From contig AP024680.1 of NCBI GenBank assembly GCA_025999275.1, forward strand, positions 419,578-483,577: a DNA stretch of 64,000 nucleotides, written 5' to 3'. A program made the position numbers and the translations under genes. Shown here piece by piece: positions 1-44,486 of this stretch. The notes below the pieces were generated by a model. That model did not search any database. It saw only the letters and a program-made list of their open reading frames with translations, and had not been told where the DNA came from. Numbering within the stretch: the stretch's first letter is position 1; every line of letters begins with the position of its first letter. The DNA comes from Patescibacteria group bacterium (lineage in GTDB: Bacteria > Patescibacteriota > Microgenomatia > UBA8517).

Positions 1-1001
1 ACAGTACAGTTCCGGTTTTTGTTTTTGCCTCTCGAACAGCTATGCCTGAAACTTTAATATCTTTTTGTTTTACTCTCCTTGTTTATTTGGTTTTACTTTT
101 TAGGGAGAATGGTTCTTTGTGGTTTCTCTTGCCGATTCCACTTTTGGTGGGTATTGCTGGTCTTTCAAAGCCTACAGGTTTTTTAATTGTTCTTTTTGCT
201 GTATTCTTTATTTTTTGGAGCTTTTATCAAAGAAAAGATATAAAGAAAGCTGTTTCTTATAGTTTATTAATATTTTTTTTAACACTGCCTTTTGTGTCTT
301 TTTATTTTTGGTGGGGATACCATTTTGATTGGGATATCTTTTTGCAAATAAATTCTATTCAATCATCTCGTCCTGTTGGTTTTGGAAGTCTTGCTTGGTT
401 TTTTATAACCCCTTCTTATGATACTGTTATTCTTCGTGATAGTTGGTTTGTTTTTGCCTTGTTGTCAGTAGCGTTTTTTATTTTTAAGGGGGTTAAAGGG
501 GATAGATTCGTGGTTTTAATGGCTTTTGTTTTTTGGGTTTTGGTTGTTATGATTTCTGGTGGAGAAAATGATTTGTTGGCTTGGTACCGTTTTCCATCTT
601 ATCCATTTTTATCAATTATTCTATCTTGGGGTTTGGTTTATTTAGTTAAGAAAGCTAATTTCTTTACCATGTTTTTGGCAGCTGGATTGCTATTGGGTAA
701 TCGTATGCTTTTAGTTAATCCTTTCCATCCAAATATAAATCCATCAAGCTATAGAATATTAATCTTTATTTTTATGGTTTTTCCATTGCTTTATATTGTT
801 TTTAAAAAATCTTATTTTAAGAAAATTACCAGGTTTTTGATTTTAGCGATCATCTTAGTTGGCTTTTTCTTTAATGTTAAATATATTTACAACTCTTTTG
901 AACTTGCTTGCCAAAGCAGGTCTTGTGTAATAGTTGGTTCAAACTGGCTTTCTGAATTAAGAATTCCATTTTTTTGGAGGTTTTTGATAATGAATAGGTA
1001 G
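1..1001 (+). CDS. polytopic membrane protein, 5'-partial (reading frame open to window edge)
   Basis: Frame of ORF 42..1001 has no stop back to nt 3; multiple hydrophobic helices; likely C-terminal part of an upstream GT-C-like membrane protein. Confidence 0.45.
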   Translation, partial: STVPVFVFASRTAMPETLISFCFTLLVYLVLLFRENGSLWFLLPIPLLVGIAGLSKPTGFLIVLFAVFFIFWSFYQRKDIKKAVSYSLLIFFLTLPFVSFYFWWGYHFDWDIFLQINSIQSSRPVGFGSLAWFFITPSYDTVILRDSWFVFALLSVAFFIFKGVKGDRFVVLMAFVFWVLVVMISGGENDLLAWYRFPSYPFLSIILSWGLVYLVKKANFFTMFLAAGLLLGNRMLLVNPFHPNINPSSYRILIFIFMVFPLLYIVFKKSYFKKITRFLILAIILVGFFFNVKYIYNSFELACQSRSCVIVGSNWLSELRIPFFWRFLIMNR

Positions 1002-1007
1002 TAATCT

Positions 1008-2660
1008 ATGAAGATTAAATTAAATTATGAGAGCTTTTTAATAATTTTGTTTTTATTTTTCTCTTCTTTAATTACTCTAAAAAATATATTTCACCCAGGT
1101 ATTTATACGGCTCATGATATTTGGCATAACCTAGCTCGTCTAAATTATTATTTTCAATTTTTGAAAGATGGGCAGGTACCTCCTTATTTTGGTTCTAATC
1201 TCGCTTATGGTTTTGGTTATCCTTTATTTTTGTTTTCCTATCATTTGCCTTGGATTTTTGGGTCTTTTTTGATGTGGCTTGGTTTTGGTGATGTTAACAC
1301 GATTAAGTTTTTGTTTTTGTTTAGTTTTTTTCTTTCTTGCGTTTCGATGTATTATTTGGCTTTTGAGATATCGAAGAATAAATTTATTTCTTTAGTTTCT
1401 TCAATCTTGTATCTATGGGCTCCTTATAGGTTTTTTATTATCTATGTTTCAGCTGCTGTTGGCATATCTTTTACTTTTATTTTTGTGCCTCTTTTGTTTT
1501 TAGGATTAATTAAGATTTATAAGTCAGAATTTACAAAAGGATTAATTTGGATGACTGTAGGTTTAACTGGTTTAATATTGTCTCATTTTCCAACGTTGGT
1601 GGTTTTTTTGCCTTTGTTTTTACTTTTGTCTGTTTATTTCTTTTTTATGTCTTCCAAAAAAGGGCTTTTTATCAAGTTTTTATTTCTTTCTTTTGTTCTT
1701 TCTTTAGGCATATCTTCTTTTTATTTTATTCCGGCGTTTTATTATAAGGGTCTTGTTTTGGGTTTACCATCCGTTTTTCATATGGGTTTTGTAACCTTGA
1801 GACAATTAATTTATTCCAAGTGGGGCTTTGGAATTATTGTTAATTCGGCTTCAGAAAACCCGTTTTCTTTTCAGATTGGAATATCTCAGTGGTTAATATT
1901 TTTGGTTAGTTTTTTGTTTGTTTTTTTAAACAGGGGCAAATCTAAGAATTTTCCTTTAATTTTAATTTTGATTTTCATTTTTTGTTTTAATGTTTTTCTT
2001 TCAACGTCTTTATCAAAAGCTCTGTGGAGTTCTTTTATCTCAAAAACTGGTCTTGATTTTCCTTTTCGGTTTATTTATCCCAACGTCTTTATCTCAAGTC
2101 TTTTGTTTGTTTATTTAATTAGAGAGATAAAAAATGATTTTATTTACTATTTTTTCTCATTTTTGCTTTTATTTATCGCGTTTTATACCAACCGTAACCA
2201 TATTCGTCCGAATATGTTTTTATCTGAAAATGAGTTTCGTCAGTTTGTTAATTCTGAGGTAACGACCAGTACTTATGGCGAATATTTTCCCTCTTTTGTT
2301 GATTTGTCTTTGGCAAATTACAATTTTAGGGAGATGATTATGAAACAAAACAATCTTTCTTTGGTTTATGAAAACAGCACAAAAAGTGTTTATAAAGTGT
2401 CTTTAGATAATGATGGGGAGGTCGTGTTGCCAAAATATGCTTACTCCTTTATTTCTTTGTATATAAATGGCGTCCCTCATGGCTTTATGATGGGGGAGGG
2501 TGGTTTGATAACATTATCTGTTAATAGAGGTTTGCAGGAGATAGAGGTTGTTTTTAACAAGAGTTTTATAATGAAGTTATCTTTTTATATAACAGTTCTT
2601 AGCTTGTTTGTTTTTTTATTAATTCTTTGGAAGAATATAAAAAGAAATTATGAAATATAG
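1008..2660 (+). CDS. polytopic membrane protein with extracytoplasmic C-terminal domain and terminal TM helix (YfhO-like architecture)
   Basis: approximately 12 TM helices then soluble stretch '...VVLPKYAYSFISLYINGVPHG...' then final TM helix; same topology as the YfhO at 12686-14974. Confidence 0.4.
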   Translation: MKIKLNYESFLIILFLFFSSLITLKNIFHPGIYTAHDIWHNLARLNYYFQFLKDGQVPPYFGSNLAYGFGYPLFLFSYHLPWIFGSFLMWLGFGDVNTIKFLFLFSFFLSCVSMYYLAFEISKNKFISLVSSILYLWAPYRFFIIYVSAAVGISFTFIFVPLLFLGLIKIYKSEFTKGLIWMTVGLTGLILSHFPTLVVFLPLFLLLSVYFFFMSSKKGLFIKFLFLSFVLSLGISSFYFIPAFYYKGLVLGLPSVFHMGFVTLRQLIYSKWGFGIIVNSASENPFSFQIGISQWLIFLVSFLFVFLNRGKSKNFPLILILIFIFCFNVFLSTSLSKALWSSFISKTGLDFPFRFIYPNVFISSLLFVYLIREIKNDFIYYFFSFLLLFIAFYTNRNHIRPNMFLSENEFRQFVNSEVTTSTYGEYFPSFVDLSLANYNFREMIMKQNNLSLVYENSTKSVYKVSLDNDGEVVLPKYAYSFISLYINGVPHGFMMGEGGLITLSVNRGLQEIEVVFNKSFIMKLSFYITVLSLFVFLLILWKNIKRNYEI

Positions 2661-4290
2661 AATAACTCTTATTTTAATTATTATAATTTCCTTTTTTCTA
2701 AGATTTTATAAAGTCACAGAGGTTCCTCCTTCTTTAAATTGGGATGAGGTTTCAATAGGTTATAATGCCTATTCTATTCTAAAGACTGGCAAAGATGAGT
2801 GGAATGAGTTCCTACCCTTACATTTCAAGTCCTATGGAGAGTATAAACTTCCTGCTCAAATTTATTTTTCTATTCCAGCAATTGCCATTTTTGGTCTGAA
2901 TGATTTTTCTGTGAGAATTACACCTGTAGTTTATGGGACATTAACCATTATTTTTCTCTATTTTCTTGCTCTGGAGGTATCAAAATCAAAGGCCATAGCC
3001 CTAATTAGTTCGTTCTTTTTGGCTGTTTCTCCTTGGCATATTCAACTGACTCGTGCTTCTTTTGAATCGTCTTTTGCATTGATGTGGGTTATTTTGGGTA
3101 TGATTTATTTAGTTAAAGGATTTAAAAAAAGAAAATTTTTTATTTTTTCAGCTTTGTTTTTTGCCCTTTCAATGTATACCTACAACTCTGCTCGTGGTTT
3201 TGTTCCTATCTTTATCTTAACTCTAATTCCCTTTTATCTTAGAGATTTTTTGAGGGAAAAGAGAGCAAGTCTTTTTTCAGGTTTTTTGTTTTTGATATTA
3301 ATTTTACCGATTTTTAATTTCTTGTTATTTGGGGAAGGAGAGGCTCGTTATAAATTGGTCAGTGTTACTGATGAAGCAGGGCTTATTCCAAGAATTGAGG
3401 AGAAAAGAAATTTTTCTAATCTACCCCCATTTTTAAAAAGACTTTTTTATAACAGGTACACTTTTATAAGTTATTATATTGCCAGGAATTATTTAGCCCA
3501 TTTTACACCGGATTTTCTTTTTATTAATGGAGCTGGACACAAACAACACCATCCTCAGGGTATAGGGCAGTTGTATTGGATTCAGGCACCATTCTTGCTT
3601 TTGGGATTTTACCTTTTGTTTAAGAATAAAAACAAATATAGATGGATTTTAATTTTATGGCTTTTAACCGCTTTTATACCAGTTTCACTAACCCGCGATA
3701 GCATACCTCATGCTTTGAGAACTTTAAACGCCGCTCCGGTTTATCAAATAGTAACTGCTATAGGTATTTACTATTCTTTTTTTTATTTGTTTAAAAAAGA
3801 TCTTACTACTTACTACTTTCTACTTGCTACTATTGTTTTTGTTTTTCTTTACCAATTTATCAAATATCAGATTTATTTTTATAAACAGTATCCAGTTTTA
3901 TATTCTCGGGATTGGCAGTATGGTAATAAGGAGGCAGTTTATTTTATTAAAGAGCACTATCATGATTATGATTTAATTGTTTTTACTCGTGAGTATGGGG
4001 AGCCTCATATGTTTACATTGTTTTATCTAAATTATCCGCCTGAAAAGTTTCAAAATGATAAAAACTTGGTTCGTTTTGAGACTTTTGATTGGGTTAGGGT
4101 TTTGAGATTTGATAAGTTTTATTTTCCTGATCTTGGAGATGAAGGAACAAAGGTTGAGTATATAAGAAAAGAATTTCCAAATAAGAAGATCTTATTTATA
4201 GCAACTCCTAGTGAGACCCCTTCTGGCCAGGAGATTTTATATAGTATTGATTTCCTTAATGGCAGTCGTGCTTTTAATATTTTCGAATGA
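2650..4290 (+). CDS. GT-C fold membrane glycosyltransferase, PMT/ArnT (GT39/GT83, PMT_2)-like, paralog 1 of tandem array
   Basis: N-terminal 'RFYKVTEVPPSLNWDEVSIGYNAYSILKTGKDEWNEFLPLHF' acidic DE loop motif typical of PMT/ArnT GT-C enzymes; approx 10 TM helices; C-terminal soluble domain with 'WQYG' motif; 11-nt overlap with upstream gene. Confidence 0.75.
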   Translation: MKYRITLILIIIISFFLRFYKVTEVPPSLNWDEVSIGYNAYSILKTGKDEWNEFLPLHFKSYGEYKLPAQIYFSIPAIAIFGLNDFSVRITPVVYGTLTIIFLYFLALEVSKSKAIALISSFFLAVSPWHIQLTRASFESSFALMWVILGMIYLVKGFKKRKFFIFSALFFALSMYTYNSARGFVPIFILTLIPFYLRDFLREKRASLFSGFLFLILILPIFNFLLFGEGEARYKLVSVTDEAGLIPRIEEKRNFSNLPPFLKRLFYNRYTFISYYIARNYLAHFTPDFLFINGAGHKQHHPQGIGQLYWIQAPFLLLGFYLLFKNKNKYRWILILWLLTAFIPVSLTRDSIPHALRTLNAAPVYQIVTAIGIYYSFFYLFKKDLTTYYFLLATIVFVFLYQFIKYQIYFYKQYPVLYSRDWQYGNKEAVYFIKEHYHDYDLIVFTREYGEPHMFTLFYLNYPPEKFQNDKNLVRFETFDWVRVLRFDKFYFPDLGDEGTKVEYIRKEFPNKKILFIATPSETPSGQEILYSIDFLNGSRAFNIFE

Positions 4291-5849
4291 AAAACAAGTT
4301 TCTTTTTTTATTTCTGATTTCAATTTTTGTTTTTAGCAGGCTTTATAAAATTAGTCAGATCCCATCATCTGTCTATTGGGACGAAGCCTCGATTGGTTAT
4401 AATGCATACTCGATTTTAAAAACAGGTAGGGATGAATGGGGTGAATTTATGCCACTTCATTTTAGAGCATTTGGTGAGTTTAAACTTCCTGTTTATATTT
4501 ATTCAACTGTTCCTTTTGTCCATTTTTTCGGCTTAAATGAGGTTTCAGTTCGAATGCCTTCCTTTTTTTATTCCCTTTTTAGTTTATTAATTATTTTTGC
4601 TTTGGTTAAAACAGTTTTTGAAAGTGAATCTTTGGCTTTTTTGTCTGCTTTTCTTTTTACTGTTTTACCTTGGGATTTTATTTTTTCAAGAACTGGTTAT
4701 GAAGCATCTTGTGGTCTTTTCTTTTTTCTTCTCTCGCTTTTGATTTGGTTTTTATTCAAACCTTTTGATCTTAAAATCAAAAGATCTTTTGGAAAAAAGA
4801 TTTTATTTCTGCTTGTTTATTTATTTTCTTTAATTTTTTCTATATATTCATATAACTCTTTTCGTTTTTGGTCGCCTTTGTCTTTTGTTTTCCTTCTAAC
4901 TGCCAGTTTAATTAAACAAATTGGAAATATTAAGTATAAATTGATTTTCTCTTTAATATCTTTTCTTATAATATCTTTTTCTTTTTATCCTATTTATCGC
5001 CTTTACAAATTTGATTATGGTTCAAGCAGGTTCCAGGCCGTTTCTCTTCAAGGGAATTTTAAAGAAAAAACTTATTCTTTTGTCAAAAACTATCTTTCTC
5101 ATTTTTCTTTTGATTTTTTGTTCTTAAATGGTGATTCTAATTTACGAAGCCAAATGCCTGGCTTTGGAGAGATTTATGTTTTGAGTTTGCCATTTATTGT
5201 TTTGGGCTTTTTGTATTTATTAAGAAGAAAAGACGAATTTTCTTCGATTATTATTTTTTTGCTTTTGATTTCACCCATTCCAGCAAGCCTGACTAAAGAA
5301 TCACCGCATTCACTAAGATCAATTCTTTTAGCTTTTGTCTTTCCGGTTTTGATTTCTCTTGGAATTTATAGTTTTATTTCTGTCTTTGGTAGACAGAAAA
5401 AATTTGTTTTATCAATTATAGTCTTTTCTTATCTTTTGTTCTTTGGCTTTTATTACAGCAGTTTTATCAGAAATTATAACAATATTTCTTCTTCAGAGTG
5501 GCAATATTTGTATAAGGAGGTTTTTGTAAATAGGCGAGAAGTTGTTGAAAGAGCCAATAAAGTGATAGTTTCTGATTCTTATGGGCAGCCTTATATTTTT
5601 GCTCTTTTCTATAATGAATTTAGTCCTGAGGAATTTAGAAAGACTGTAAGATATAACTCTCCTGACAAATGGGGTTTTTCAACAGTTTATTCTTTTGATA
5701 AATTTGTATTTAAGAAAGTGGATTATCAAGATTTAGAAAAGGGTTCTATTATTTTTTCTGATGAAGAGATATTGGGAAAAGATAACAGCTTAATTGATAA
5801 GATTGTTAGTAGAGATGGAAAAGATTTGCTTTTTGTATATAAAATTTGA
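4287..5849 (+). CDS. GT-C fold membrane glycosyltransferase, PMT/ArnT-like, paralog 2
   Basis: 'RLYKISQIPSSVYWDEASIGYNAYSILKTGRDEWGEFMPLHF'; ATGA start/stop overlap with paralog 1; C-terminal 'SSEWQYLYKE'. Confidence 0.75.
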   Translation: MKNKFLFLFLISIFVFSRLYKISQIPSSVYWDEASIGYNAYSILKTGRDEWGEFMPLHFRAFGEFKLPVYIYSTVPFVHFFGLNEVSVRMPSFFYSLFSLLIIFALVKTVFESESLAFLSAFLFTVLPWDFIFSRTGYEASCGLFFFLLSLLIWFLFKPFDLKIKRSFGKKILFLLVYLFSLIFSIYSYNSFRFWSPLSFVFLLTASLIKQIGNIKYKLIFSLISFLIISFSFYPIYRLYKFDYGSSRFQAVSLQGNFKEKTYSFVKNYLSHFSFDFLFLNGDSNLRSQMPGFGEIYVLSLPFIVLGFLYLLRRKDEFSSIIIFLLLISPIPASLTKESPHSLRSILLAFVFPVLISLGIYSFISVFGRQKKFVLSIIVFSYLLFFGFYYSSFIRNYNNISSSEWQYLYKEVFVNRREVVERANKVIVSDSYGQPYIFALFYNEFSPEEFRKTVRYNSPDKWGFSTVYSFDKFVFKKVDYQDLEKGSIIFSDEEILGKDNSLIDKIVSRDGKDLLFVYKI

Positions 5850-7450
5850 TTATGAATAGATTAGCTTCTTTTTTGTTTTTGATAATTTTGTTGCTGGGGG
5901 CTTTTTTAAGATTTTATAAACTCGATTCTATTCCACCTTCTCTTAATTGGGATGAAACTGCAGCTGCTTACAATGCTTATACGATCAAAAACTGGGCAAA
6001 GGACGAGTGGGGTAAAACTTTACCTTTAGTGTTTACTTCTTTTCGCGATGATAAAAGACCTATTCATATTTATATAACTTCTATGTTTTTTAATTTATTT
6101 GGAGCTACTGATTTTTCTGCTCGCTTTCCATCTGCTCTTATTGGTTTCTTGATGATTCCTTTGTTTTTTTTATTCGGCAAGCTTTATTTTGGTAGTGATT
6201 TGGCAGGGCTTTTTTCTGCATTTGCTATTGCTTTTTCAAGTTATGATATTCATTATTCCAGGGGGTTGTGGGAAGCTCATTTTGCACTTTTCTTTTTTGT
6301 TTTGGGTTTAGTGTTGTTTAGGGCGGGTTTGACTAGGAAAGGAAGGGAAGCGCTTGTTCCGTTGGCTTATTTCTCTTTTGGATTGTCTCTTTTTTCTTAT
6401 CATTCAGCTTTGGTTGTTGTTCCACCAATGGTTTTTATTCTAACTTTATTTTTTCTTAAGGATCTTTTGAAGATACTCAATTCTTTTTCGTTTGGCATGT
6501 TTATTTTTATCTTTTTTATAAGTCTGCTTTTTTTTGAACCAAGGCTTTTGGGAATAGCAAGGATTAATCAAAATAAGTTGCCTAAAGAAACTGTAGAAAA
6601 GACTTATATTTTCCAAAAAACAGGTAACCATCTTTTGGGACAACTTGAGATTATGATCCCTAAGTACAAGGATTATTTTTCTTATCAATATCTTTTTGAG
6701 GAAGGGAATAAATCACCCCGAGCAAGTATGAATTATGGGGGGAAGTTTTCAAAAACAGTATTTTTTTTGGCAATAATTGGATTAATTTTCCTGATTGCAA
6801 AGGGTAACTTTAAAATTTTTCTTTTAATTCTTTTTTGGTTTTTATTAGCGCCGTTGCCAGCAGTATTTTCAAGTGGAGAGCCACATGCTACAAGAGCAAT
6901 TTTTATGCTTGGTCCTCCTCAAATTTTGGCTGGGTTTGGTTTTTTTAAGATCTGGCAATTTTTGAGAGCTAGTTCCCTGAGGTTTGTTCTTGTTTTGTTG
7001 ATATTGGTGTTTTTTGCCAAAGATAGAGCTCTTCAAATTTTAAATTACTTTGATCGTTATGATAAAGACTACCCTATAGAGTGGCAATATGGTATGAAGC
7101 ATGTGGTTGATATTGTAAGAGACTCTAAATACAAGAAAGTTTATGTAGATATAGTTCGCCAGCAACCTTATATTTTCTTTCTTTGGTATAACAAAGTGCC
7201 TTTGCCTGAGTTTTTGTCGACTGTAAAGTATGATTATTCTTCTTCCTCCAGTTTTAACACGGTTTTTTCTTTTGATAAATATCAATTTGGCGGTTGGGAT
7301 TGGGTAGAGAGTGCTCCTCTTGATAATGTAGCCTATGTTGTTGAACCCTATAAATATACCGGTTTAAGAAGAAGGACTGACTTTCTAAATGTTAACTTGG
7401 TAAAATATCCAAGTGGGGCAGAGGCTTTTTATGTTGTTTCAGTTTATTAA
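5846..7450 (+). CDS. GT-C fold membrane glycosyltransferase, PMT/ArnT-like, paralog 3
   Basis: 'RFYKLDSIPPSLNWDETAAAYNAYTI'; ATGA overlap with paralog 2; C-terminal 'PIEWQYGMKHV'. Confidence 0.75.
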   Translation: MIMNRLASFLFLIILLLGAFLRFYKLDSIPPSLNWDETAAAYNAYTIKNWAKDEWGKTLPLVFTSFRDDKRPIHIYITSMFFNLFGATDFSARFPSALIGFLMIPLFFLFGKLYFGSDLAGLFSAFAIAFSSYDIHYSRGLWEAHFALFFFVLGLVLFRAGLTRKGREALVPLAYFSFGLSLFSYHSALVVVPPMVFILTLFFLKDLLKILNSFSFGMFIFIFFISLLFFEPRLLGIARINQNKLPKETVEKTYIFQKTGNHLLGQLEIMIPKYKDYFSYQYLFEEGNKSPRASMNYGGKFSKTVFFLAIIGLIFLIAKGNFKIFLLILFWFLLAPLPAVFSSGEPHATRAIFMLGPPQILAGFGFFKIWQFLRASSLRFVLVLLILVFFAKDRALQILNYFDRYDKDYPIEWQYGMKHVVDIVRDSKYKKVYVDIVRQQPYIFFLWYNKVPLPEFLSTVKYDYSSSSSFNTVFSFDKYQFGGWDWVESAPLDNVAYVVEPYKYTGLRRRTDFLNVNLVKYPSGAEAFYVVSVY

Positions 7451-7456
7451 ATTTTT

Positions 7457-8317
7457 ATGAGCAAGCTTTCTGTAGTTTTGGCAACATATAACGAAGAGAA
7501 TAATTTAGGTAGATGCCTTGGTGCAGTTAAAGAAATTGCGGATGAGATAGTTGTTGTTGATGGTTCTTCGACTGATAAGACTGTTGAAATAGCTAAAAAA
7601 TATAAAGCTCGTGTTTTAGTTGTTGATAATCCGCCAATCTTTCATATTAATAAACAGAAAGCCCTTGATATGGCCAGATATCCCTGGATTCTGCAGCTTG
7701 ATGCTGATGAAGTTGTATCAAAAGAACTTGCAGAAGAGGTGAGAAAAATAATTAAGATGAGTGATGAGGAAATTGATAATTATCAAAAGAATCTTCCTGA
7801 AAGGGATCTTTTTTTGAGACACCAGTCTTTGCTTGAAAAAAGGGATGGTAAGTTTGGTAATAAAGGTGAGTATGCAGGCTTTTTTATTCCAAGAAGAAAT
7901 TATTTTTTGGGTAAATTCTTAAGGTTTGGTGGTGTTTATCCTGATGGGGTAATTAGATTGGTTAAGAAAGGCAAGGCGTATTTTCCTTGTAAAAGTGTTC
8001 ATGAACAGATTGTAATTGATGGTAGGGTTGGTTGGCTTGCTAATCCACTTTTGCATTATGACTCCCCAACTTTTAAAAGATATCTTGAAAGAAATTCTCG
8101 TTATATCGATTTAATAGTGAAGGATCTAAAGGATAAAAAAGTGGGTAAAAATTTATTTGAGTTTTTAAATTATTTTTTCTTTAAGCCTGTCTGGTGGTTT
8201 TTCTTAACACAAATAAGACACAAAGGAATTCTTGACGGTTGGCAGGGTGTTGTTTTTAGTTTCTTTTCAGCGCTTAGATTTCCAAGAGCTTATTTTAGGT
8301 ATCTTGCAAATAAATAG
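7457..8317 (+). CDS. glycosyltransferase family 2 (GT-A fold)
   Basis: 'LSVVLATYNEENNL...VVVDGSSTDKT...LQLDADEV' canonical GT2 N-terminal and DXD motifs. Confidence 0.85.
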   Translation: MSKLSVVLATYNEENNLGRCLGAVKEIADEIVVVDGSSTDKTVEIAKKYKARVLVVDNPPIFHINKQKALDMARYPWILQLDADEVVSKELAEEVRKIIKMSDEEIDNYQKNLPERDLFLRHQSLLEKRDGKFGNKGEYAGFFIPRRNYFLGKFLRFGGVYPDGVIRLVKKGKAYFPCKSVHEQIVIDGRVGWLANPLLHYDSPTFKRYLERNSRYIDLIVKDLKDKKVGKNLFEFLNYFFFKPVWWFFLTQIRHKGILDGWQGVVFSFFSALRFPRAYFRYLANK

Positions 8318-8326
8318 TTTATAGAT

Positions 8327-9517
8327 ATGATAAATCTTATTAAAAGAATTTCTATATCTGAATTGCTGGTGGTGGTTTTTTTATTTACACTGCATCTTTT
8401 TTTTGTTTTTTTTACTAAATCTAATCTTGGTTTTATAACACTTTTTCCTAAAAACCTTTTCCTCTTTCAGTTATTGGAGATAAGCTTTTCTAATCCCTCC
8501 TTTTTTATCTATATTGTTAGCTTTTTGAATTTTTTATTGATTTTTTGGTTGGCTAATATCTTTTTTGGTAAATCGGGCTTTTTATATCCCTTGATTGTTT
8601 ATTCATTTTCTCCTTGGATTTTTTATTCTGTTGCTTTTAATTCTCATTATGTTTTTTTGCTATTTATAGTTTTGCTTATTATAAGTGGAATTGTGTTTGT
8701 TGAAAAAGGAAAAAGAGGGGCTTTGTTCTTGCTTTTCTTTGCCATTTTTTTAGGTATGGTGAGCGATTTCTTTCTGTTTTTCCTAATTCCTGTTTTCTTT
8801 ATTTTGTATTTAATAATTTTTGGCAGTGAGTCTGTAAGAAAATTTATTTATCCCACAGTTTTCTCACTTTTTGTTTTATTTGTTTTCCTTTTTTTCTTCT
8901 TGTTTAAATTGAGACCCGGTTTTTTTGCAATTGCAGCCAATGAATTTGGAATTTTTGACGATCCTGGTTTTATGAATATGGTAAATACCTATAGGGGAGA
9001 ATCTTCACAAGAAGGTTTTGTTTTCCTGTCTCGTCTTGTTGAAAATAAGTATTTTCTCGGCCTTGAATTTTTAATTCTTAGGTTTCTAAGTTTTATAACA
9101 CCAGCTACTTATTTTACATCGCAAGAGAGGTTTTTTGGTTTTTCTTTCAGTCCACCTATCTTTATTGGTTTTCTGATTCCCTTTTTGTATGGTCTTTACA
9201 GACTTATTTCTGATAAAAAAGCTAGAAAATTTTTGTTTTTGAGTCTTATTTTAATTCTTCCTTCTTTTTTTTCTTCTTTATCAATCAACCTTTCTCGTTT
9301 GATTATTTTTTCTCCTATTATAATTTTTGCAATTTCTTATGGTTTTATTGGCTTATTAAATTTTAAGAAAAGTAAAGCACCAGTTGTCCTGGTTTGGATT
9401 AGTATTTTTCTTCTTATTTTTCAATTGTTTTTGACTGTTTATGATATTAAGTTAAAAGAAAAGGAGAGGTTTTTAAGGTACTATAACTTTGATAGCAGTT
9501 ATAAAATCAAAATATGA
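8327..9517 (+). CDS. polytopic integral membrane protein, function unknown
   Basis: 396 aa, almost entirely hydrophobic helices; embedded in glycosylation operon. Confidence 0.5.
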   Translation: MINLIKRISISELLVVVFLFTLHLFFVFFTKSNLGFITLFPKNLFLFQLLEISFSNPSFFIYIVSFLNFLLIFWLANIFFGKSGFLYPLIVYSFSPWIFYSVAFNSHYVFLLFIVLLIISGIVFVEKGKRGALFLLFFAIFLGMVSDFFLFFLIPVFFILYLIIFGSESVRKFIYPTVFSLFVLFVFLFFFLFKLRPGFFAIAANEFGIFDDPGFMNMVNTYRGESSQEGFVFLSRLVENKYFLGLEFLILRFLSFITPATYFTSQERFFGFSFSPPIFIGFLIPFLYGLYRLISDKKARKFLFLSLILILPSFFSSLSINLSRLIIFSPIIIFAISYGFIGLLNFKKSKAPVVLVWISIFLLIFQLFLTVYDIKLKEKERFLRYYNFDSSYKIKI

Positions 9518-11158
9518 AGATTAAAAAAAGAACGACCTTAATATTACTGGCTATAACTTTGATCGCTGCTTTTTTAAGATTTTACAAAATAGATAGAAAT
9601 CCTCCTAGTTTGACTGGTGATGAAATTTCTTTTGGCTATGCAGCTTACTCTATTTTGAAAACTGGTAGAGATGAATCTGGAAGATTCTTGCCACTTGTAA
9701 TTCAATCAATTGGTGATTACAAAAATCCTTTGCCAGCATATTTGATGGTTGTATCATTTAAATTTTTTGGAGTGAATGATTTTGCAGTTAGATTCCAGAA
9801 TGCACTTTTTGGGACATTAACAGTTTTTGTTTTTTTCTTTTTTCTTTTTTATCTCTTAAAGAATGATAAGCAAGCTTTATTGGGTAGTTTCTTTTTGGCT
9901 TTATCTCCATGGCATATTTTTTATTCTCGTTTTGCTTACGAACCATTGATTGCTAGTTTTTTTTGCTCTTTTAGGTATATGGTCTTTTATGAAGATGCTT
10001 GATAGCAAAAGCGTTAAATTTGCCTTCCTATCATCATTTTTTTTGATTCTAACCATGTATACAGGTTTTGCTCAAAGGTTATTTGTACCTGTTTTCTTCT
10101 TCTTTCTTGTTTTGTTTAATTTAAGAAAGTTGTTTAAGGTTAAAAAGATATTTTTAATTTTTTCTTTTTTATCATTCTTGTTTGTTTTGCCGCTAATCTA
10201 TGTCTCCTTATTTCAAGGAGCATCTACTAGATTTAAAATGGTTTTTATAGCTAATGATATAAATTATGTTCGTTATGTTATTTTTGGTTATGCAAGCCGT
10301 TTTATTGACTATTGTTATCTTTTCTTCTTCTGGATTAAAAGATATTTAAATTATTTACAACCTAGGTTTCTATTTTCAGATGCTTTGCAGATGGTTTTAC
10401 CAGGAAATATTGGATTAGGAATTTTATATCCTTTTGAGGGTTTGTTTTTGGTTTTTGGCATATTTGAGCTTATAAAAAGAAGAATTTTACATAAGGATAT
10501 GCTTTTAATTTGGCTTTTTACCGGTATAGTTCCTGATTCTATAACAAACAATGAGCAACATGCGGGTAGACTTCTTCATATAGCTCCACTTATATTTACT
10601 ATTACCACCTTAGGAGCAGTAAGTTTATGGCGTCTTTTAAATAAAAAAGTTAAGGGTATTAAAAGTTTTTTTATTTTATCTGTTCTTGTTGCCTTTTCTG
10701 TTTTAAATATTCTGTTTGCTTGGCTCTTGTTTAGAGTTCATTTTCCTTATCAAAAGAGTGAAGCTTTTGATGAGGGTTGGAGAGAAGTTGTTTATTCGGT
10801 AATGAAATATCAGGATAATTATGAAAAGATTATCTTTGATATCAGAAGGGGTGTTGATGGCCCATATATGGTGAGCAATCCTCATATGTATTTGTTGTTT
10901 TACTCCAAATATGATCCATCCAAATATCAAACAATAAAGAAAGTATTTAATGTGTATGGTGATAGTGAACCTTACTTTGCTTTTGATAAATATTCTTTTG
11001 GGTATATTAATTGGTACAGAGATTCTAAATATAAAAATACTCTTTTGGTAGGCAGTCCTTGGAGTTTCCCTAAGGAGGAAGATTTGGGAAATAAATTGAT
11101 TGAAAAGATTTATCTTTCGAACGGCAAACCCGCTTTTTATCTAGTTTCCACTGAATAG
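9514..11158 (+). pseudogene. GT-C PMT/ArnT-like paralog 4, interrupted by +1 frameshift inside a T8 homopolymer (9957-9964)
   Basis: ORF 9514-10002 carries the N-terminal 'RFYKIDRNPPSLTGDEISFGYAAYSILKTGRDE' motif and ends 'ASFFCSF...'; ORF 9950-11158 (TTG start in track) continues the paralog alignment ('ALLGIWSFMKMLDSK' matches 'FALMWVILGMIYLVKGF' of paralog 1); removing one T from the T8 run fuses the two into a single ORF of about 565 aa. Confidence 0.7.
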
Positions 11159-11188: not shown

Positions 11189-11881
11189 TTAAGTGAGATC
11201 ATTATCTTCGATTATTAATTTTTTAATTTTTTGGGTGTTTAATGAATATCTTTCTACAAAGTCTTTATAGTTGTTTATCTTCTTGAATTCGGGTGCTGTG
11301 GGTTTATTAAAAACTTGTAGTATGATATTCGGATTTATCCAAGCTGTTTTGCGTATTCCTAGATACTCTGCGTAGGAGGAGTAAGAATCTACTAGATTGT
11401 TAGCATACTCTTTGGGGTTTAGGTGGATATATCGTGACAAGTGAATTAATTGCTCATCGTTTTTAACAATAACTGCTTTATAATGCCCCTGGAATAGTTT
11501 TCCAACACGCTTATACTTTTTATTGAAATACATAGAATATCTGGTGGAAATTGACCTCATAAAACTTTCCATACCATTTTTGTTTTCTTGCTTTATTAGT
11601 AAATGGAAATGATTTGGCATTAGACAGTAGGCAATTAATTCTATTTCTTTGTTGTAATTTTTAGGTTGTCTGGGTACACCTTTAAAGGAGGCTCCTTTTA
11701 AGGTAAAAGTTTTTCTAATATCATCTGGTTTGGGAGGGGGCAGTAAGGCTTGCTTTAGATAGTTTAAGAATACTTTATAATCTTGGGAATCAAGGAAAAT
11801 TTTTCTTTTTTCAACACCCCTATTGTAAATGTGGTAGTAACCTTGCTCAAAGTATATTTTAATGGAGTTCTTTTGAGGCAT
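11189..11881 (-). CDS. IS200-like / REP-associated tyrosine transposase (HuH Y1 transposase, PF01797-like)
   Basis: 'YYHIYNRGVEKRKIF' N-terminus, HuH motif 'LMPNHFHLLI', catalytic-Tyr motif 'RYIHLNPKEY' - all hallmarks of TnpA(IS200)/RayT. Confidence 0.8.
   Translation of the reverse strand: MPQKNSIKIYFEQGYYHIYNRGVEKRKIFLDSQDYKVFLNYLKQALLPPPKPDDIRKTFTLKGASFKGVPRQPKNYNKEIELIAYCLMPNHFHLLIKQENKNGMESFMRSISTRYSMYFNKKYKRVGKLFQGHYKAVIVKNDEQLIHLSRYIHLNPKEYANNLVDSYSSYAEYLGIRKTAWINPNIILQVFNKPTAPEFKKINNYKDFVERYSLNTQKIKKLIIEDNDLT
11679..11703. repeat. palindromic REP-like motif copy B, located inside the transposase CDS
   Basis: CCTTTAAAGGAGGCTCCTTTTAAGG; encodes the in-frame segment '...LKGASFKGVPRQ...' of the transposase. 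Confidence 0.7.
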
Positions 11882-11958: not shown

Positions 11959-12705
11959 ATGGAACTTTTGGGTAAAAATGTTGTTATACTCGGGGCGACA
12001 GGGGGAATAGGAAGATCCCTCGCCTTTGCTTTTGCAGCTAAAGGCGCCAATCTTATCTTGACTGGTAGGAGAAAGAGAATTCTTGATGCGCTTTCAAAAG
12101 AAATTCGTAAATTTTCTGTTTCAGTTGATACTTTTACTCTTGATGTCACAAAAGAAAAAGAATGGAGGCCTTTTATAAGAAAGGTGGAAAGTAAATTTGG
12201 CCATATTGATATTTTAATTAATTCTTTTGGCGTTGGTATTTATAAAAAACTCAAAGATTTAGAGATAGAGGATTTTAAAAAGTCCATTGATGTTAATTTA
12301 AACTCTGTCTTTTTGTCGATTAAGAATTTTTTGCCGCTTCTTGAAAAATCTCATAAAGCCTATGTTTTGAGTCTTGGTTCTGGTATGGGTAAAATTGGCG
12401 TCTCAGGCAGGTCTTCTTATTGCGCTAGCAAGTTTGGATTAAGGGGGTTAATGCTTTCTCTTGCTAAGGAGTATAAAAGTACTAATATTAATTTCTGTCT
12501 TTTGACCTTAGGTAGCGTTCTGACAGCGTTTGGACCTTTAAGTCTTGAGGAAAAAATAGAAAAGCAAAAGAAGGGGAAGGGATATCTTGATCCAGTAAGC
12601 CTTGCCAAGGCTATAGCTTCAAAGATAGAAAATGAAACATTAGAAGAAGAAGTCTCTATTTATCCGTCTAGGTATTTTAAGGAATCTAAAAGTGGTGTTG
12701 TTTGA
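11959..12705 (+). CDS. short-chain dehydrogenase/reductase (classical SDR)
   Basis: 'VVILGATGGIGRSLA' TGxxxGxG NAD(P)-binding motif and 'YCASKFGLRG' YxxxK catalytic motif. Confidence 0.85.
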   Translation: MELLGKNVVILGATGGIGRSLAFAFAAKGANLILTGRRKRILDALSKEIRKFSVSVDTFTLDVTKEKEWRPFIRKVESKFGHIDILINSFGVGIYKKLKDLEIEDFKKSIDVNLNSVFLSIKNFLPLLEKSHKAYVLSLGSGMGKIGVSGRSSYCASKFGLRGLMLSLAKEYKSTNINFCLLTLGSVLTAFGPLSLEEKIEKQKKGKGYLDPVSLAKAIASKIENETLEEEVSIYPSRYFKESKSGVV

Positions 12706-14974
12706 TTTTTGTCTTTCTTGCTTCTATGGCTAGTATTAAAAACCAAATTACAAATGATATTCCTGATATTTTTTTCCCTAGTTGAAACATCTTTGGATAA
12801 TAATAAAATCTGATTATTCCTTTTCCTTCTGGAACTTCTACAGATCTAAATACTTCTAAGTATTTTTTGATAGGTACATCCTTGTTGTTTAACTGAGCTT
12901 TCCAGTCATTTGTATAAGTATCAGTTAGTATAAGATTTCCTTTTTCTGGAGTTGAAAATTCGATAAAAACTTCGTTTGGGGAGTATTTTACAATTTTTGC
13001 TTCTCCAACTATTTCTCCTTTATCACTTTCTATTCTTACTCTTTCTTTATATTTAGTGTTTTCTAAGATGTATACTGATCCGTATTCGTATACTTTTTGC
13101 CAGTCTCTTAAATTTATTGCCCAATAGGTATGCTTTCCTTCTTTGTCTATATTTGTATCGTTAGAGTATTTAAGAGCCAGTAGATATTTGACTGACAATT
13201 TTCCAAGCATATCTGCATCGTAGTTTGATGACAAATTTGAGTATCTGGAAAGAAATTTCAAATTTTGTTTTGATATCTGCTTTTGATAGAAAGCGACATA
13301 TTCCTTTAGAGCTAGAGGGTCATACCCCGATAAACTGTATAGTCTGTAGAAAGCCCATGTGTTTGGTGGTAGCAATGGCCCTCTTTCACTTTCTACTCTA
13401 GCTAGATTAGCATTTTCTTTGAGATAGTTGATTATTTCTGTATTTGGGTATGCAAATTTATTAGGTGTAAATGGTAGATATTTCCAATTGTAATAAAAAA
13501 GTTCAAATATTGTTACAATAACTATTGATATAGTAAGCAATTTATTTTTTTTGTTGAATATTAAAGAAAACACAATTATGGTAAATAGAATTCCTGTTGG
13601 TATTAGTGAGTTCTTTATTGCGATTTTTAGGTGCGATGCAGACTGTTCATTTGATTGATTCAAGAAAAAAATATATGTTACAAACAGCTCTAATATTATT
13701 AGAACTATTGCTAATAAATTTTTTTGAATAAATTTTGATACTTTTGTTTTGCTGTTGTTATCTAGCCATTTTCCTATTAGAACACTTCCACAAAATATAT
13801 AAACAAAACCCATTCTTCCAGCTGCGCTTGTGGTAATTAGGGGGAGTTTTGTTTGGTAAATCATTTTAGATAGAGGATTGTCAAATATGAGTAACAAAGA
13901 TAATAAGCACCATATGGTGAAAAATTTTTCTTCTTTGGAAAGAAGTTTGAAATTTATTATTGACCATATTATTGCGAAGATTCCTACTATTCCAAGATAT
14001 ATTGTCGTTTCATGATAGTTAAAAAAGCCCCAATAATTGCCTGTAACTGGGTTGCCAAAGAAATTTGGGGCTATCAAAGTGGCTAGGTGCCTTAATGGTA
14101 GTAATCCATAGTTGTACATTTGTATATAGTTTTCATTGAAGCGTATAGATTCTGTTAGTTGTTGATATGTTGGTAATACTTGTATTAATAAAGTGCCAAT
14201 TCCTAGAATTTCTACCAACAGGAAGTATGATAGTTTAGAAAGTTTGTTTTTTAAATCTGGGTTAAGAATTTTAAGAAGAAAATAGCTGTTGAATATTATT
14301 AGAGAAAATATAAATGCTTGAAAATGACCCGAAGAACCAAGCAGAAATATTAAAGGAACAGCTAGTAACAAGTATATTTTTTTATTTTTTTCTTCGTATT
14401 GGTTTATAAGTAAGAGAAGCAGAGGCAAATAAATCATAGCAAATCCCAAATTTGCAAATTGCAACCATGTTATGGCGAAAGTTGAAAAGGTGTAACAGAT
14501 AGATCCAAGAATGGCAGGTAATTGGGATATTCTAAGTGATCTAAGGAAAAAGTACATAGATATTATAGAACCAATACTTTGAGAAATTATCATTAGGTTC
14601 CATCCTTTTAGATCTCCAAGAAATATTTGAAATAGGTTGAATGGATTTAGGGCTCCTGATTGAAAATTAGCCAATAGGGGGATTCCTGCATATTCATATG
14701 GGTTCCAAAGAGGCCACTGAAAGTTTCTATAAGATTCAGCAATCAATGACTTCCATATAAATATTTGAGAAAATATGTCAGATATTAAAGGATTTTTTAT
14801 TGGTACTCCTACTATATAGCCCCACTTATAATCTAGCCAAGGATAATATGCTCCAACCAAGAGATCTCCTGGAAATAATATTAGTCCTTTAAATATCGCT
14901 TTCCAGTAAAAAGCTATTACTATCAATATTAGAAGTGAAATAAAAAAAATTTCTTTGGTTTTTATTTTTTTCAC
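12686..14974 (-). CDS. YfhO-family polytopic membrane protein (GT-C-like glycan transferase)
   Basis: 762 aa; N-terminal '...LFPGDLLVGAYYPW', many TM helices, extracytoplasmic domain '...NDWKAQLNNKDVPIKKY...' followed by terminal TM - YfhO architecture; converges on and overlaps SDR gene by 20 nt. Confidence 0.6.
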   Translation of the reverse strand: MKKIKTKEIFFISLLILIVIAFYWKAIFKGLILFPGDLLVGAYYPWLDYKWGYIVGVPIKNPLISDIFSQIFIWKSLIAESYRNFQWPLWNPYEYAGIPLLANFQSGALNPFNLFQIFLGDLKGWNLMIISQSIGSIISMYFFLRSLRISQLPAILGSICYTFSTFAITWLQFANLGFAMIYLPLLLLLINQYEEKNKKIYLLLAVPLIFLLGSSGHFQAFIFSLIIFNSYFLLKILNPDLKNKLSKLSYFLLVEILGIGTLLIQVLPTYQQLTESIRFNENYIQMYNYGLLPLRHLATLIAPNFFGNPVTGNYWGFFNYHETTIYLGIVGIFAIIWSIINFKLLSKEEKFFTIWCLLSLLLIFDNPLSKMIYQTKLPLITTSAAGRMGFVYIFCGSVLIGKWLDNNSKTKVSKFIQKNLLAIVLIILELFVTYIFFLNQSNEQSASHLKIAIKNSLIPTGILFTIIVFSLIFNKKNKLLTISIVIVTIFELFYYNWKYLPFTPNKFAYPNTEIINYLKENANLARVESERGPLLPPNTWAFYRLYSLSGYDPLALKEYVAFYQKQISKQNLKFLSRYSNLSSNYDADMLGKLSVKYLLALKYSNDTNIDKEGKHTYWAINLRDWQKVYEYGSVYILENTKYKERVRIESDKGEIVGEAKIVKYSPNEVFIEFSTPEKGNLILTDTYTNDWKAQLNNKDVPIKKYLEVFRSVEVPEGKGIIRFYYYPKMFQLGKKISGISFVIWFLILAIEARKTKIKQHHF

Positions 14975-17318: not shown

Positions 17319-17710
17319 TTTTTGTTTTTATGAATTACAGAAGCGCCAAAAGAGAGGTGAAGCTTACTTTTTCAGATGATGATTGGAGGAACTTTTGGAT
17401 ATTGCAAAAGTAAAGGATCTTAATAAAGAATCTGTAAGGAAGTTGTTTTGCTTAGCTTTTAAACTTTTTATCAGCGATTAATACTCCATTGACGATTTAT
17501 CAGCAATTTGTGACAGATTATTTTCAGTCTTGGTTAGGTCTGGCACCAAAAAGTATCCCGAGCTTCTTGATGGAGTGGAAGCAGGTTCTGAGATTTCTTT
17601 TTACATCAGAGACATTAATCTTCTTCCTATTTTTAATAGATTTTTAAAAGATATTTTTGACGTTTATTATCTTGTTTCTAAAAAAAATAGGGTATTTTCT
17701 TTTTTTATTA

Positions 17711-17722
17711 TTGTTGTATAAT
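17711..17722 (+). promoter_or_regulatory. putative -10 element (TGTATAAT) 6 nt upstream of gmd ATG; leaderless-type arrangement
   Basis: TTGTTGTATAAT at 17711-17722, ATG at 17729; same TGTATAAT-N6-7-ATG arrangement upstream of 22190. Confidence 0.3.
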
Positions 17723-17728
17723 CTTCTT

Positions 17729-18742
17729 ATGGCTAAGGCCAAAAAGAAAGCTTTAATTACAGGGATTACTGGACAGGATGGATCTTATTTGGCAGAGCTT
17801 CTTCTTAAAAAAGGCTACGAGGTTTCTGGTATAGTGAGAAAAACTAGTCATTTTTATTATGCCAACATTGCCCATATTCAGCATAATTTGAATCTGATTC
17901 AAGCTGATCTTTTAGACCCTGTATCTATTCGTGAAGCAATTCAAAAAGTTAAGCCTGATGAAATTTATAATTTAGCCTCCCAATCTCATCCTGCAGAATC
18001 TTTCAGGCAGCCAATTCATACAGCTGAAATTACTGGAATTGGTGCTCATCGTGTAATGGACGCTGCGCTTGATGTTGTTCCTAATGCTAAGTTTTATCAG
18101 GCATCTTCAAGTGAGATGTTTGGATGGGTAAAGGAAATTCCTCAAAACGAAAACACTTCTTTTAATCCTGCCAACCCTTATGCTGCAGCCAAACTTTATG
18201 CTCATAATATCGCAAGAATTTATAGAAAGAGTTATAAGATGTTTATTTCTTGCGGTATTCTTTTTAATCACGAATCTCCTCGTCGAGGTTTGGGCTTTGT
18301 TACTCAAAAAGTTACCTATGCTGCGGCTTGTGCTAAGCTTGGTATAAGAACTAGTCAGCATTTGAATGAAGAAGGGGAGCCAATTGTTAAAGATGGTAAG
18401 GTGGCGCTTGGAAATTTGGAAGCAAAAAGAGACTGGGGCTTTGCTGGAGACTATGTTGAAAGTATGTGGTTGATGCTTCAACAGAAAGAACCTGATGATT
18501 ATGTGATTGGAACAGGAGAAACTCACACAATAGCTGAGCTTTGTGAAGAAGCTTTTTCTTACCTTGGTCTTGATTGGAAAAAGTATGTTGTTGTAGATCA
18601 GCGTTTTATAAGGCCAACTGAAACAGGTCCATTGGTGGCTGATTATTCAAAAGCAAAGAAGGTCTTAGGGTGGAAGCCAAAAACTTCTTTTAAGGAGCTT
18701 GTTCGTATGTTGGTTGATGCTCACTTGGCTCGTCTGAGATAG
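17729..18742 (+). CDS. gmd: GDP-mannose 4,6-dehydratase
   Basis: 'KKALITGITGQDGSYLAELLLKKGYEVSGIVR' and 'NHESPRRGLGFVTQKV' are near-canonical GMD motifs; start taken at internal ATG 17729 of track ORF 17657. Confidence 0.9.
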   Translation: MAKAKKKALITGITGQDGSYLAELLLKKGYEVSGIVRKTSHFYYANIAHIQHNLNLIQADLLDPVSIREAIQKVKPDEIYNLASQSHPAESFRQPIHTAEITGIGAHRVMDAALDVVPNAKFYQASSSEMFGWVKEIPQNENTSFNPANPYAAAKLYAHNIARIYRKSYKMFISCGILFNHESPRRGLGFVTQKVTYAAACAKLGIRTSQHLNEEGEPIVKDGKVALGNLEAKRDWGFAGDYVESMWLMLQQKEPDDYVIGTGETHTIAELCEEAFSYLGLDWKKYVVVDQRFIRPTETGPLVADYSKAKKVLGWKPKTSFKELVRMLVDAHLARLR

Positions 18743-31038: not shown

Positions 31039-31439
31039 AAAGAAAGTTAATAAAGATTATAAAAGCCCCTTCATTTATTACAGATGGGATGCTCACCCAA
31101 CTTCAGTATCCCGACGTTCCTTTTGAAATAAAGAGGGTATATTTTATACAGGGAGTTTCGGAAGGTGCCGTGAGGGGAGCGCATGCCCATGTGGAGACTA
31201 TTCAGGCTTTATTTTGTATCCAAGGATCAATAAAAATGGTCTTTGATGATGGTAAAGTTAGGGAAGAGATAATTTTAGATAAGCCTAATGTGGGGGTTTT
31301 ACTTGAACCTGGTGTTTGGCATGAGATGCAGGATTTTAAGAAGGATACTATAATTTTAGTGTTGGCGTCCAAAGAGTATGAACCTAAGGATTATATCAGG
31401 AGTTATGAAGATTTCTTAAACTTTTATGCAGGTAACTAG
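31035..31439 (+). CDS. sugar 3,4-ketoisomerase, FdtA/QdtA-like cupin (WxcM C-terminal domain family)
   Basis: 'FEIKRVYFIQGVSEGAVRGAHAH...LVLASKEYEPKDYIRSYEDF' matches FdtA family conserved blocks. Confidence 0.75.
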   Translation: MKRKLIKIIKAPSFITDGMLTQLQYPDVPFEIKRVYFIQGVSEGAVRGAHAHVETIQALFCIQGSIKMVFDDGKVREEIILDKPNVGVLLEPGVWHEMQDFKKDTIILVLASKEYEPKDYIRSYEDFLNFYAGN

Positions 31440-44450: not shown

Positions 44451-44486
44451 TAATGGTTAATGATTGATGACTAATGGTTAATGATT
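44451..44486. repeat. heptamer array: two direct copies of TAATGGTTAATGAT; second copy contains the start codon of the 4HB gene
   Basis: perfectly complementary to 44877-44890. Confidence 0.75.

Follow-up and report, generated by a model that had tools for sequence, protein, structure and literature searches.

Three adjacent genes in a 64-kb stretch of DNA from a hot-spring Patescibacteria metagenome-assembled genome (MAG), the window of this study, encode glycosyltransferases of the GT-C fold. The genes, named A, B and C here, are followed by a gene for a glycosyltransferase of family GT2. Orthologous groups and gene order in related genomes indicate that the trio arose long ago and has been kept by selection as a unit, rather than having expanded locally in recent times. 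All three belong to a known kind of enzyme (GT-C), within which A, B and C appear as ancient, divergent paralogues; the sole unusual element of the three is a C-terminal domain that is specific to their family. With respect to function, the chances seem to us evenly balanced that A, B and C are three non-redundant extracytoplasmic GT-C enzymes that use polyprenyl-phosphate-sugar donors and serve one surface glycoconjugate.

Glycosylation and envelope assembly in Patescibacteria (the candidate phyla radiation, CPR) are almost unstudied. A paper on Saccharibacteria describes the glycosylation processes of that group as unexplored (PMC11623550). Full-text searches on GT-C, PMT and ArnT-type enzymes of CPR/Patescibacteria yielded no account of an A-B-C-GT2 operon or of GT-C arrays. 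In the window, evidence for GT-C was obtained for 15 genes, which occupy 23.3 kb (36% of the total). For a genome of about 0.8 Mb (the contig of about 786 kb is probably most of it), the island in the window, with its GT-C share of at least 36% of 64 kb, represents a very large investment, and A-B-C-GT2 is among the most conserved parts of the GT-C share across Woesebacteria and Daviesbacteria. The findings leave the understanding of GT-C enzymes as a class unchanged. What the three genes provide for the biochemistry of surface assembly in these tiny symbionts is a set of defined, orthology-anchored targets with intact motifs, a few group-specific residues and a compact C-terminal domain.

Paralogy, gene order and age

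The relationship between the three proteins was established by pairwise comparison. Using blastp, A and B aligned with 33.5% identity over 510 aa (E = 3.6e-82) and B and C with 30.9% over 488 aa (E = 6e-46), while A and C aligned in two segments (E = 2.5e-32 and 2e-05). The pairwise identities in a MAFFT alignment were 36.6% for A and B, and 28.3 and 28.9% for the other two pairs. The real pairs scored 258, 124 and 160 bits, whereas 200 shuffles of each pair never gave more than 30 bits. These values point to full-length paralogues with a relatedness far beyond chance.

Conservation was then gauged per region, using the identities within and between the orthologous groups. The highest identity between the paralogues (44–62%) was found in the first external loop, which is soluble and comprises residues 19–84 of A. 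The membrane core (A residues 85–228 and 312–417) is 20–39% identical, the second large loop (229–311) 19–38% and the C-terminal soluble domain (418–546) 23–31%. The most divergent stretch, residues 241–270, lies within the second large external loop and is where B has a deletion. The original prediction, which was made from the sequence alone, had described a conserved N-terminus and a divergent C-terminal domain. The former agrees with the values for residues 19–84; the latter was overstated, since the C-terminal domain is about as conserved as the membrane core and it is the second large loop that varies most. The shared N-terminal block R(F/L)YK..PPSLNWDE..GYNAYSIL..DEWG..LPL.F and the shared C-terminal (E/D)WQY motif are both present in the alignment. 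The likeness is not limited to low-complexity hydrophobic segments, a pattern that the original prediction had named as incompatible with its claim, as the soluble loop is the best-conserved region.

To determine the age of the trio, GTDB species representatives were scanned, which yielded 80 loci (labelled with L numbers below); 69 of these were informative, and their open reading frames (ORFs) were called and classified against the window proteins. A, B, C and GT2 are strictly adjacent in 46 of the 69 loci, and a further 14 carry small or inserted ORFs between them, so that the order is preserved in 60. These loci are spread over Woesebacteria, Daviesbacteria and related Microgenomates, and A orthologues of about 60% identity are numerous in the first two. 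The nine exceptions include L004, the closest complete genome, which is without C, and four Shapirobacteria-like loci that also lack it. In L011, C lies upstream of A; L069 is without B; L036 is rearranged; and L046 has an A-like gene (37% identity) where B should be. The identity of the orthologues to the window proteins is 53–79% for A, 37–58% for B, 38–49% for C and 43–79% for GT2, and the closest relatives of protein A are only 75–79% identical to it, a distance at which synonymous sites would be saturated.

An alignment and phylogeny of the paralogues, suggested earlier as a check, resolved A, B and C into three separate clades. In a neighbour-joining tree of 355 family members, the syntenic members fell into their own clades for A (47/47), B (46/47) and C (47/47), and D (a fourth member of the subfamily in the window) and other paralogues formed further clades. 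Since the A, B and C clades stay separate across lineages, the duplications predate the split of these lineages. The predicted duplication followed by divergence is thus sound as regards paralogy and the presence of group-specific residues, but the duplication is ancient and did not take place in this genome. In A numbering, the positions that are fixed differently in each group are 64, 65 and 70, all beside the conserved Lys66, two positions of the second large loop (295 and 299) and two of the C-terminal domain (451 and 453). Together with the retention of the catalytic-site residues (see below), this pattern fits a functional specialisation of the three proteins.

In L084, the closest relative examined (79% identity in A), a gene of 567 aa precedes the series A-B-C-GT2-Y1_Tnp-SDR-GT4-PIG-V-like. 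Compared with this layout, the window contains an inserted pair of genes, G and D, and an inserted YfhO gene. It appears that the backbone is conserved, while additional GT-C genes come and go.

The original prediction had placed three head-to-tail genes in this part of the window, with ATGA overlaps at both junctions that were taken to point to translational coupling. Three ORFs on the same strand were indeed found at the predicted positions, and A and B overlap by ATGA. At the junction of B and C, by contrast, there is a TTGA overlap or a 2-nt gap, depending on the start codon (Table 1). Of the 46 strictly syntenic loci, 25 have an overlap of exactly 4 nt between A and B, and 15 have one between B and C; in the window GT2 starts 6 nt after C. 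However, stop/start overlaps are frequent throughout the window and Shine-Dalgarno motifs are nearly absent from it (3 of 41 genes), so the overlaps provide no special evidence for coupling. Shine-Dalgarno analysis, which was tried as a test of translational coupling, was uninformative for the same scarcity of the motif. The packing of A, B and C is tight enough to make co-transcription likely, and probably reflects no special coupling device.

A side observation from the scan concerns database records. Many GTDB representative MAGs titled "uncultured Gammaproteobacteria bacterium" carry A-B-C-GT2 with 55–63% identity and a synteny of the Microgenomates type. The loci concerned, from TPA_asm binchicken/SRP assemblies, include L006–L010, L014, L015, L017, L023, L025 and L026. 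The titles of these MAG records are almost certainly wrong.

Fold, active-site residues and the C-terminal domain

Protein A matches the Pfam families PMT (PF02366; 37.6 bits, cut-off 22.7) and PMT_2 (38.5 bits, cut-off 26.1). C matches PMT_2 above the gathering threshold (41.5 bits, 2.1e-10), and the N-terminus of D matches PMT above threshold (51.9 bits). B alone gave no Pfam match at E = 0.01; its orthologues gave weak matches to PMT and PMT_2, and B itself matches the hidden Markov model (HMM) of the family with E = 1.3e-162. In NCBIfam, no family was matched by A or B, C had only a sub-threshold match to Agl23, and none of A, B, C, D, the distant relative E and the other GT-C genes of the window reached the cut-off of any family. 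Beyond the PMT/PMT_2 region, and in residues 229–311, nothing was matched in Pfam.

An AlphaFold2 model of A was built with 31 orthologues (pLDDT 86.5, pTM 0.87). A Foldseek search of the PDB with this model returned AglB, STT3 and PglB with E values of about 1e-8 to 1e-9, and ArnT with a TM-score of 0.55. These matches identify the fold as GT-C, and by structure no single subfamily is closest. In sequence searches of the PDB, a profile of the A orthologues found nothing significant (best match STT3, E = 0.054), but a profile of the first 230 residues of the A–D orthologues matched the ArnT chain 5ezm_A (E = 2e-7, 34.4 bits) at profile positions 69–228. None of the PMT chains in the PDB was matched by sequence, even at E = 10. 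The similarity of the A–D family to ArnT is remote and partial and spans about 160 residues. Taken together, the Pfam matches, the fold of the model and the ArnT profile match uphold the earlier label of GT-C (PMT/ArnT-like) and place A, B and C, as judged from sequence and model, in the GT-C fold and the Pfam PMT/PMT_2 clan, which contains CAZy GT39 and GT83.

The model shows about 11 membrane helices; in the topology proposed from these helices, the active site would lie in the first external loop and the C-terminal domain outside the cell. In the GT-C/PMT clan, an acidic pair in the first external loop (EL1) and an Arg before transmembrane helix 10 (TM10) are functional residues throughout; the Arg is found in STT3, PglB and AglB, and in ArnT the residue K85 is reported to contact the phosphate of the lipid carrier (PMC7801869). 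In A, W31-D32-E33 and D49-E50 are invariant in a 16-sequence alignment of the family. Together with K66, P68, R357 and about 30 other residues, they reach a conservation of at least 90% in every one of the three orthologous groups, and the same holds for Y38-N39-A40 of the loop. HMMER aligned K66-x-P68 of A with the KPP motif of ArnT 5ezm. By analogy, R357 is proposed to bind the lipid phosphate; its equivalence to the Arg of the clan is suggested by its position at the start of helix 355–383. Since the catalytic-site residues are kept in all three groups, A, B and C all look catalytically competent and are probably all active enzymes. The possibility that one or more of the copies are inactive pseudo-enzymes was rejected on the same ground.

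The C-terminal domain is compact, comprises about 130 residues and was modelled at high confidence. A profile of the domain matched 2042 representative clusters among 1.84 billion proteins, of which 686 were matched at E ≤ 1e-10. In 147 of the 150 matches listed, the domain is at the C-terminal end of the protein, and in the other three it ends 25–103 residues earlier. Apparently full-length proteins with the domain have about 500–585 aa. Within the window it is confined to A, B, C and D. It is a module specific to this family and contains no recognisable carbohydrate- or peptide-binding module.

Proposed function and its alternatives

According to our proposal, each enzyme would take a single sugar from a polyprenyl-phosphate-sugar donor at the outer face of the membrane and pass it to an acceptor outside the cytoplasm. 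The three genes would be co-transcribed with the downstream GT2, and their products would perform different, non-redundant steps, which may differ in the acceptor site or in the linkage, on the same cell-surface glycoconjugate. The outside-facing GT-C enzymes would extend a lipid-linked glycan that is supplied by cytoplasmic GT4 and GT2 enzymes together with a Wzx-like flippase. This scheme is modelled on the luminal ALG series and on the assembly of mycobacterial arabinan and mannan. The class of donor is suggested by what is established for the PMT/ArnT clan. The island in which the genes lie (see the last section) and the group-specific residues suggest that the acceptor would be a glycan instead of a protein, and that the three enzymes are not redundant.

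Four known systems are useful for comparison. ArnT (CAZy GT83; PDB 5ezm/5f15), the undecaprenyl-phosphate-L-Ara4N:lipid A transferase, is the only solved protein that the A/B/C/D family matched significantly by sequence. It resembles A, B and C in its length of about 550 aa and in its layout, in which the membrane domain comes first and the C-terminal part is a soluble domain outside the cytoplasm (PMC7801869). However, it has 13 membrane helices compared with about 11 in the model of A, no NCBIfam ArnT model was matched by A, B or C, and there are no arn-type genes among the Pfam annotations of the window. Patescibacteria, to our knowledge, have no outer membrane, so lipid A is not expected as the acceptor.

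The embCAB operon likewise consists of three head-to-tail GT-C paralogues with a membrane part and a C-terminal extracytoplasmic domain. The Emb proteins are mycobacterial arabinosyltransferases, and the paralogues have distinct acceptors; the EmbA-EmbB heterodimer (PDB 7bvf) is among the fold matches. However, Emb proteins have about 1,050–1,100 residues, carry domains of the carbohydrate-binding type and show no sequence relation beyond the GT-C core. A, B and C are thus not Emb-like in size or domains. The luminal ALG enzymes (ALG3/9/12 and ALG6/8/10) provide an analogy in which a single lipid-linked glycan is lengthened position by position by GT-C paralogues, each of which adds one sugar from a dolichyl-phosphate-sugar once the GT4-type steps in the cytoplasm and the flipping are complete. 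These enzymes are eukaryotic, are not encoded in an operon and have no sequence-level match to A, B or C. Finally, the tight linkage of a GT2 gene to GT-C genes is reminiscent of the pairs GtrB/GtrA/Gtr-type, CsbB/YfhO and ArnC/ArnT, and the window also contains a YfhO homologue and a PpgS-like synthase. In contrast to these pairs, the linked GT2 is below the cut-off of every model of a polyprenyl-phosphate-sugar synthase, and no GtrA-like flippase was found beside it.

Several observations weigh against the proposed glycan-extending function. Membership in Pfam PMT and the WDE motif are equally compatible with protein O-glycosylation. The absence of C from L004 and from the Shapirobacteria-like loci indicates that the three steps are not universally needed together. 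The C-terminal domain gave no match that would indicate glycan binding. The linked GT2 is not recognisable as a polyprenyl-phosphate-sugar synthase: no NCBIfam model reaches its cut-off, and the best sequence matches in the PDB, which cover the N-terminal part only, are GmaR and SunS, which glycosylate proteins or peptides. In addition, a crude Kyte-Doolittle scan gave an inconsistent 6–11 helices, and the helices of the model were used instead. A possible source of donors lies elsewhere in the window, where the product of the PpgS-like gene (Table 1) is the best candidate for making lipid-linked sugars for the GT-C enzymes. It strongly resembles the polyprenyl-phospho-GalNAc synthase PpgS and AglJ, with a PpgS match of 173 bits that is below the equivalog cut-off of 370.

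The first alternative, to which we would give distinctly less than an even chance, is that A, B and C are genuine protein O-glycosyltransferases of the PMT type that act on Ser/Thr, each on another class of secreted or surface protein such as pilins or S-layer proteins. The PMT family (CAZy GT39), which includes yeast Pmt1, Pmt2 and Pmt4 and the actinobacterial Pmt, shares with A, B and C the Asp-Glu pair of EL1, a count of about 11 helices and the Pfam PMT match, in which protein A and the N-terminal part of D both exceed the threshold. The WDE of the first external loop is taken by us to resemble the loop-1 Asp-Glu motif of PMTs. Moreover, the A orthologues are named "glycosyltransferase family 39 protein" by NCBI, PMT paralogues work together as dimers, and the nearest solved relatives of the linked GT2 act on proteins or peptides. 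The glycosylation of pilins has been predicted in Patescibacteria and is still unexplored (PMC11623550). On the other hand, not one PMT chain in the PDB was matched even at E = 10, compared with 2e-7 for ArnT. A, B and C also differ from PMTs in their family-specific C-terminal alpha/beta domain and in having no Pfam match in the second large loop, the site of the extra domain of the eukaryotic enzymes. Eukaryotic PMTs have a MIR domain in the large loop between late helices, and bacterial Pmt enzymes, as far as we know, are without it. The missing loop domain therefore excludes only the eukaryotic PMT architecture. The setting is an island of the polysaccharide type (Wzx-like, Wzy_C and many GT4 and GT2 genes), and no obvious substrate genes (pilins or S-layer proteins) were seen in the window.

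The second alternative, that A and B, and perhaps C, form an obligate hetero-oligomeric GT-C complex in which the overlap of the genes matches the amounts of the subunits, would fit either type of acceptor, and we consider it unlikely. In almost all loci A and B lie side by side, with the exact 4-nt overlap in 25 of the 46 strictly syntenic ones, and no more than about 4 of the 69 loci are without B, whereas C is lost more often. GT-C heterodimers are known, and two of them, Pmt1-Pmt2 (6p25) and EmbA-EmbB (7bvf), are among the fold matches. However, stop/start overlaps are generic in this compact genome, the full catalytic motifs are present in all three proteins, none of which looks purely structural, and insertions separate A from B in L035, L055 and L068.

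A broader form of this idea is that A-B(-C)-GT2 is an outside-facing, hetero-oligomeric GT-C assembly line that is specific to Microgenomates, in which the C-terminal alpha/beta domain, then a newly described one, binds the acceptor and which builds a lineage-specific coat of glycopolymer or glycoprotein. This we regard as speculative and rather improbable. If true, the assembly line would belong to the conserved core of the envelope machinery in a major lineage that is still uncultured, going beyond a set of GT39-like genes, and the coat would serve envelope integrity or host attachment in episymbiotic, ultra-small bacteria.

Very improbable is the remaining explanation, that the paralogues are redundant, fast-turnover copies from a recent local expansion that serve surface variation (phase or antigenic variation, or evasion of phages): although the island gains and loses GT-C genes (G-D and YfhO being inserted compared with L084 and L004, and C being absent from L004) and a frame split at or near a homopolymer run is seen in two of its GT-C genes, the trio itself is intact, forms old orthologous groups with an order conserved across class-level lineages and has only 28–37% identity between its members compared with 38–79% for orthologues, and runs of T8 are so common that the frameshift of D may be a sequencing error. 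Recent local expansion and phase variation were accordingly rejected for A, B and C on phylogeny and synteny.

The glycan-assembly island and other features of the window

By its gene content, the whole window is a glycan-assembly island. Besides the GT-C genes, it contains eight GT2 genes, six GT4 genes, one GT8-like gene and three methyltransferase genes, in addition to the flippase, Wzy_C and sugar-nucleotide-modifying genes that are listed with the other features in Table 1.

Table 1. Coordinates of the features discussed, in order along the window.
Feature	Position	Strand	Remarks
Polytopic membrane protein, C-terminal part	42-1001	+	cut by the window start
Polytopic membrane protein upstream of A	1008-2660	+	550 aa; 11-nt overlap with A
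Gene A, GT-C glycosyltransferase	2650-4290	+	546-aa ORF; more highly conserved than B and C
First external loop of A, residues 19-84	2704-2901	+	W31-D32-E33, Y38-N39-A40, D49-E50, K66-x-P68
Codon for R357 of A	3718-3720	+	Arg at the start of helix 355-383 (helix from the model); conserved in all groups
C-terminal alpha/beta domain of A, residues 416-546	3895-4287	+	motifs WQY, EPHxFTLFY, FDKFYF
A/B stop/start overlap	4287-4290	+	ATGA, read off the sequence
Gene B, GT-C paralogue	4287-5849	+	520-aa ORF; deletion in the second large external loop
B/C junction	5846-5854	+	TTGA overlap if the start is TTG 5846; 2-nt gap if ATG 5852; no ATGA
Gene C, GT-C paralogue	5846-7450	+	534 aa (start TTG 5846) or 532 aa (start ATG 5852)
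Linked GT2 (GT-A fold) glycosyltransferase	7457-8317	+	286 aa; Pfam Glycos_transf_2 3.8e-20; downstream of C in about 60 of 69 loci
Gene G, polytopic membrane protein, weakly PMT_2-like	8327-9517	+	396 aa; Pfam PMT_2 1.9e-5, sub-threshold
Copy D, fourth member of the A/B/C subfamily	9514-11158	+	divided into two ORFs by a single extra T (T8 run 9957-9964)
Y1/IS200-type transposase-like gene	11189-11881	-	
YfhO gene	12686-14974		
GDP-mannose 4,6-dehydratase	17657-18742		
FdtA	31035-31439		
DegT aminotransferase	31426-32535		
Other GT-C subfamily (Agl23/PMT_2-like)	40548-42072	-	split in two frames, switch near 40830-40915
NYN-domain protein	42527-43120	+	embedded among glycosyltransferase genes
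Wzx-like flippase	43170-44438		
"23S rRNA intervening sequence protein" homologue	44481-44870	+	embedded among glycosyltransferase genes
Candidate polyprenyl-phosphate-sugar synthase, GT2	50708-51385	-	225 aa; NCBIfam PpgS 5.6e-51, AglJ 3e-37
AbiEii-type toxin nucleotidyltransferase	51719-52339	+	embedded among glycosyltransferase genes
Gene E, distant GT-C relative	52341-54059	-	572 aa; different, Cys-containing C-terminal region
Hexapeptide acyltransferase	56343-56948		
Wzy_C protein	58332-59828		

Three further copies of the A/B/C enzymes had been predicted in the window, of which only D is a full member of the subfamily, and this in a frame-split form. When the extra T is removed, D encodes 547 aa and aligns without a gap across the junction with intact orthologues (L027, L055, L010 and L035), to which it is 53–55% identical. 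The window contains 24 runs of T8, and the frameshift may stem from an error in sequencing the homopolymer or from a mutation that inactivated the gene very recently. The second predicted copy, E, is a distant relative with 19–23% identity to A, B and C (E = 2.5e-80 against the family HMM) and no match to the profile of the C-terminal domain. The third, at 40548–42072, belongs to another GT-C subfamily; judging from its own sequence, its downstream frame reads like the usual GT-C region of membrane helices and C-terminal part. This gene and D are the two GT-C genes of the window that are frame-split at or near homopolymer runs.

Gene G, which directly precedes D, matches the family HMM with E = 4.2e-17. 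The G-D pair also occurs in L010, L012, L027, L032, L035, L054, L055 and L068, and both the pair and the YfhO gene are absent at the matching places in L084 and L004. The conserved backbone thus appears to be a hot spot for the gain and loss of GT-C genes. The transposase-like gene that follows D is found at the same place, after GT2 and before a short-chain dehydrogenase gene, in L004 (71% identity), L084 and L008, and looks positionally conserved rather than like a mobile copy.

Upstream of the trio, the 550-aa membrane protein that overlaps A has a weak similarity to it (28% over 129 aa, E = 1e-4 in blastp). The protein that is cut by the window start gave no match in Pfam or NCBIfam. In 15 or more related loci, orthologues of about 490 aa with 44–54% identity to it are encoded one gene, occasionally two, ahead of A, and it may be another uncharacterised envelope enzyme that is linked to the operon.

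The window as a whole is strongly asymmetric. The GC skew is positive in all of its 2-kb bins, and about 90% of the genes are on the plus strand. A monotonic cumulative skew over the whole chromosome has been reported for the Microgenomates genome Ch65 (PMC7143001), and the positive skew of the window may be the same phenomenon.

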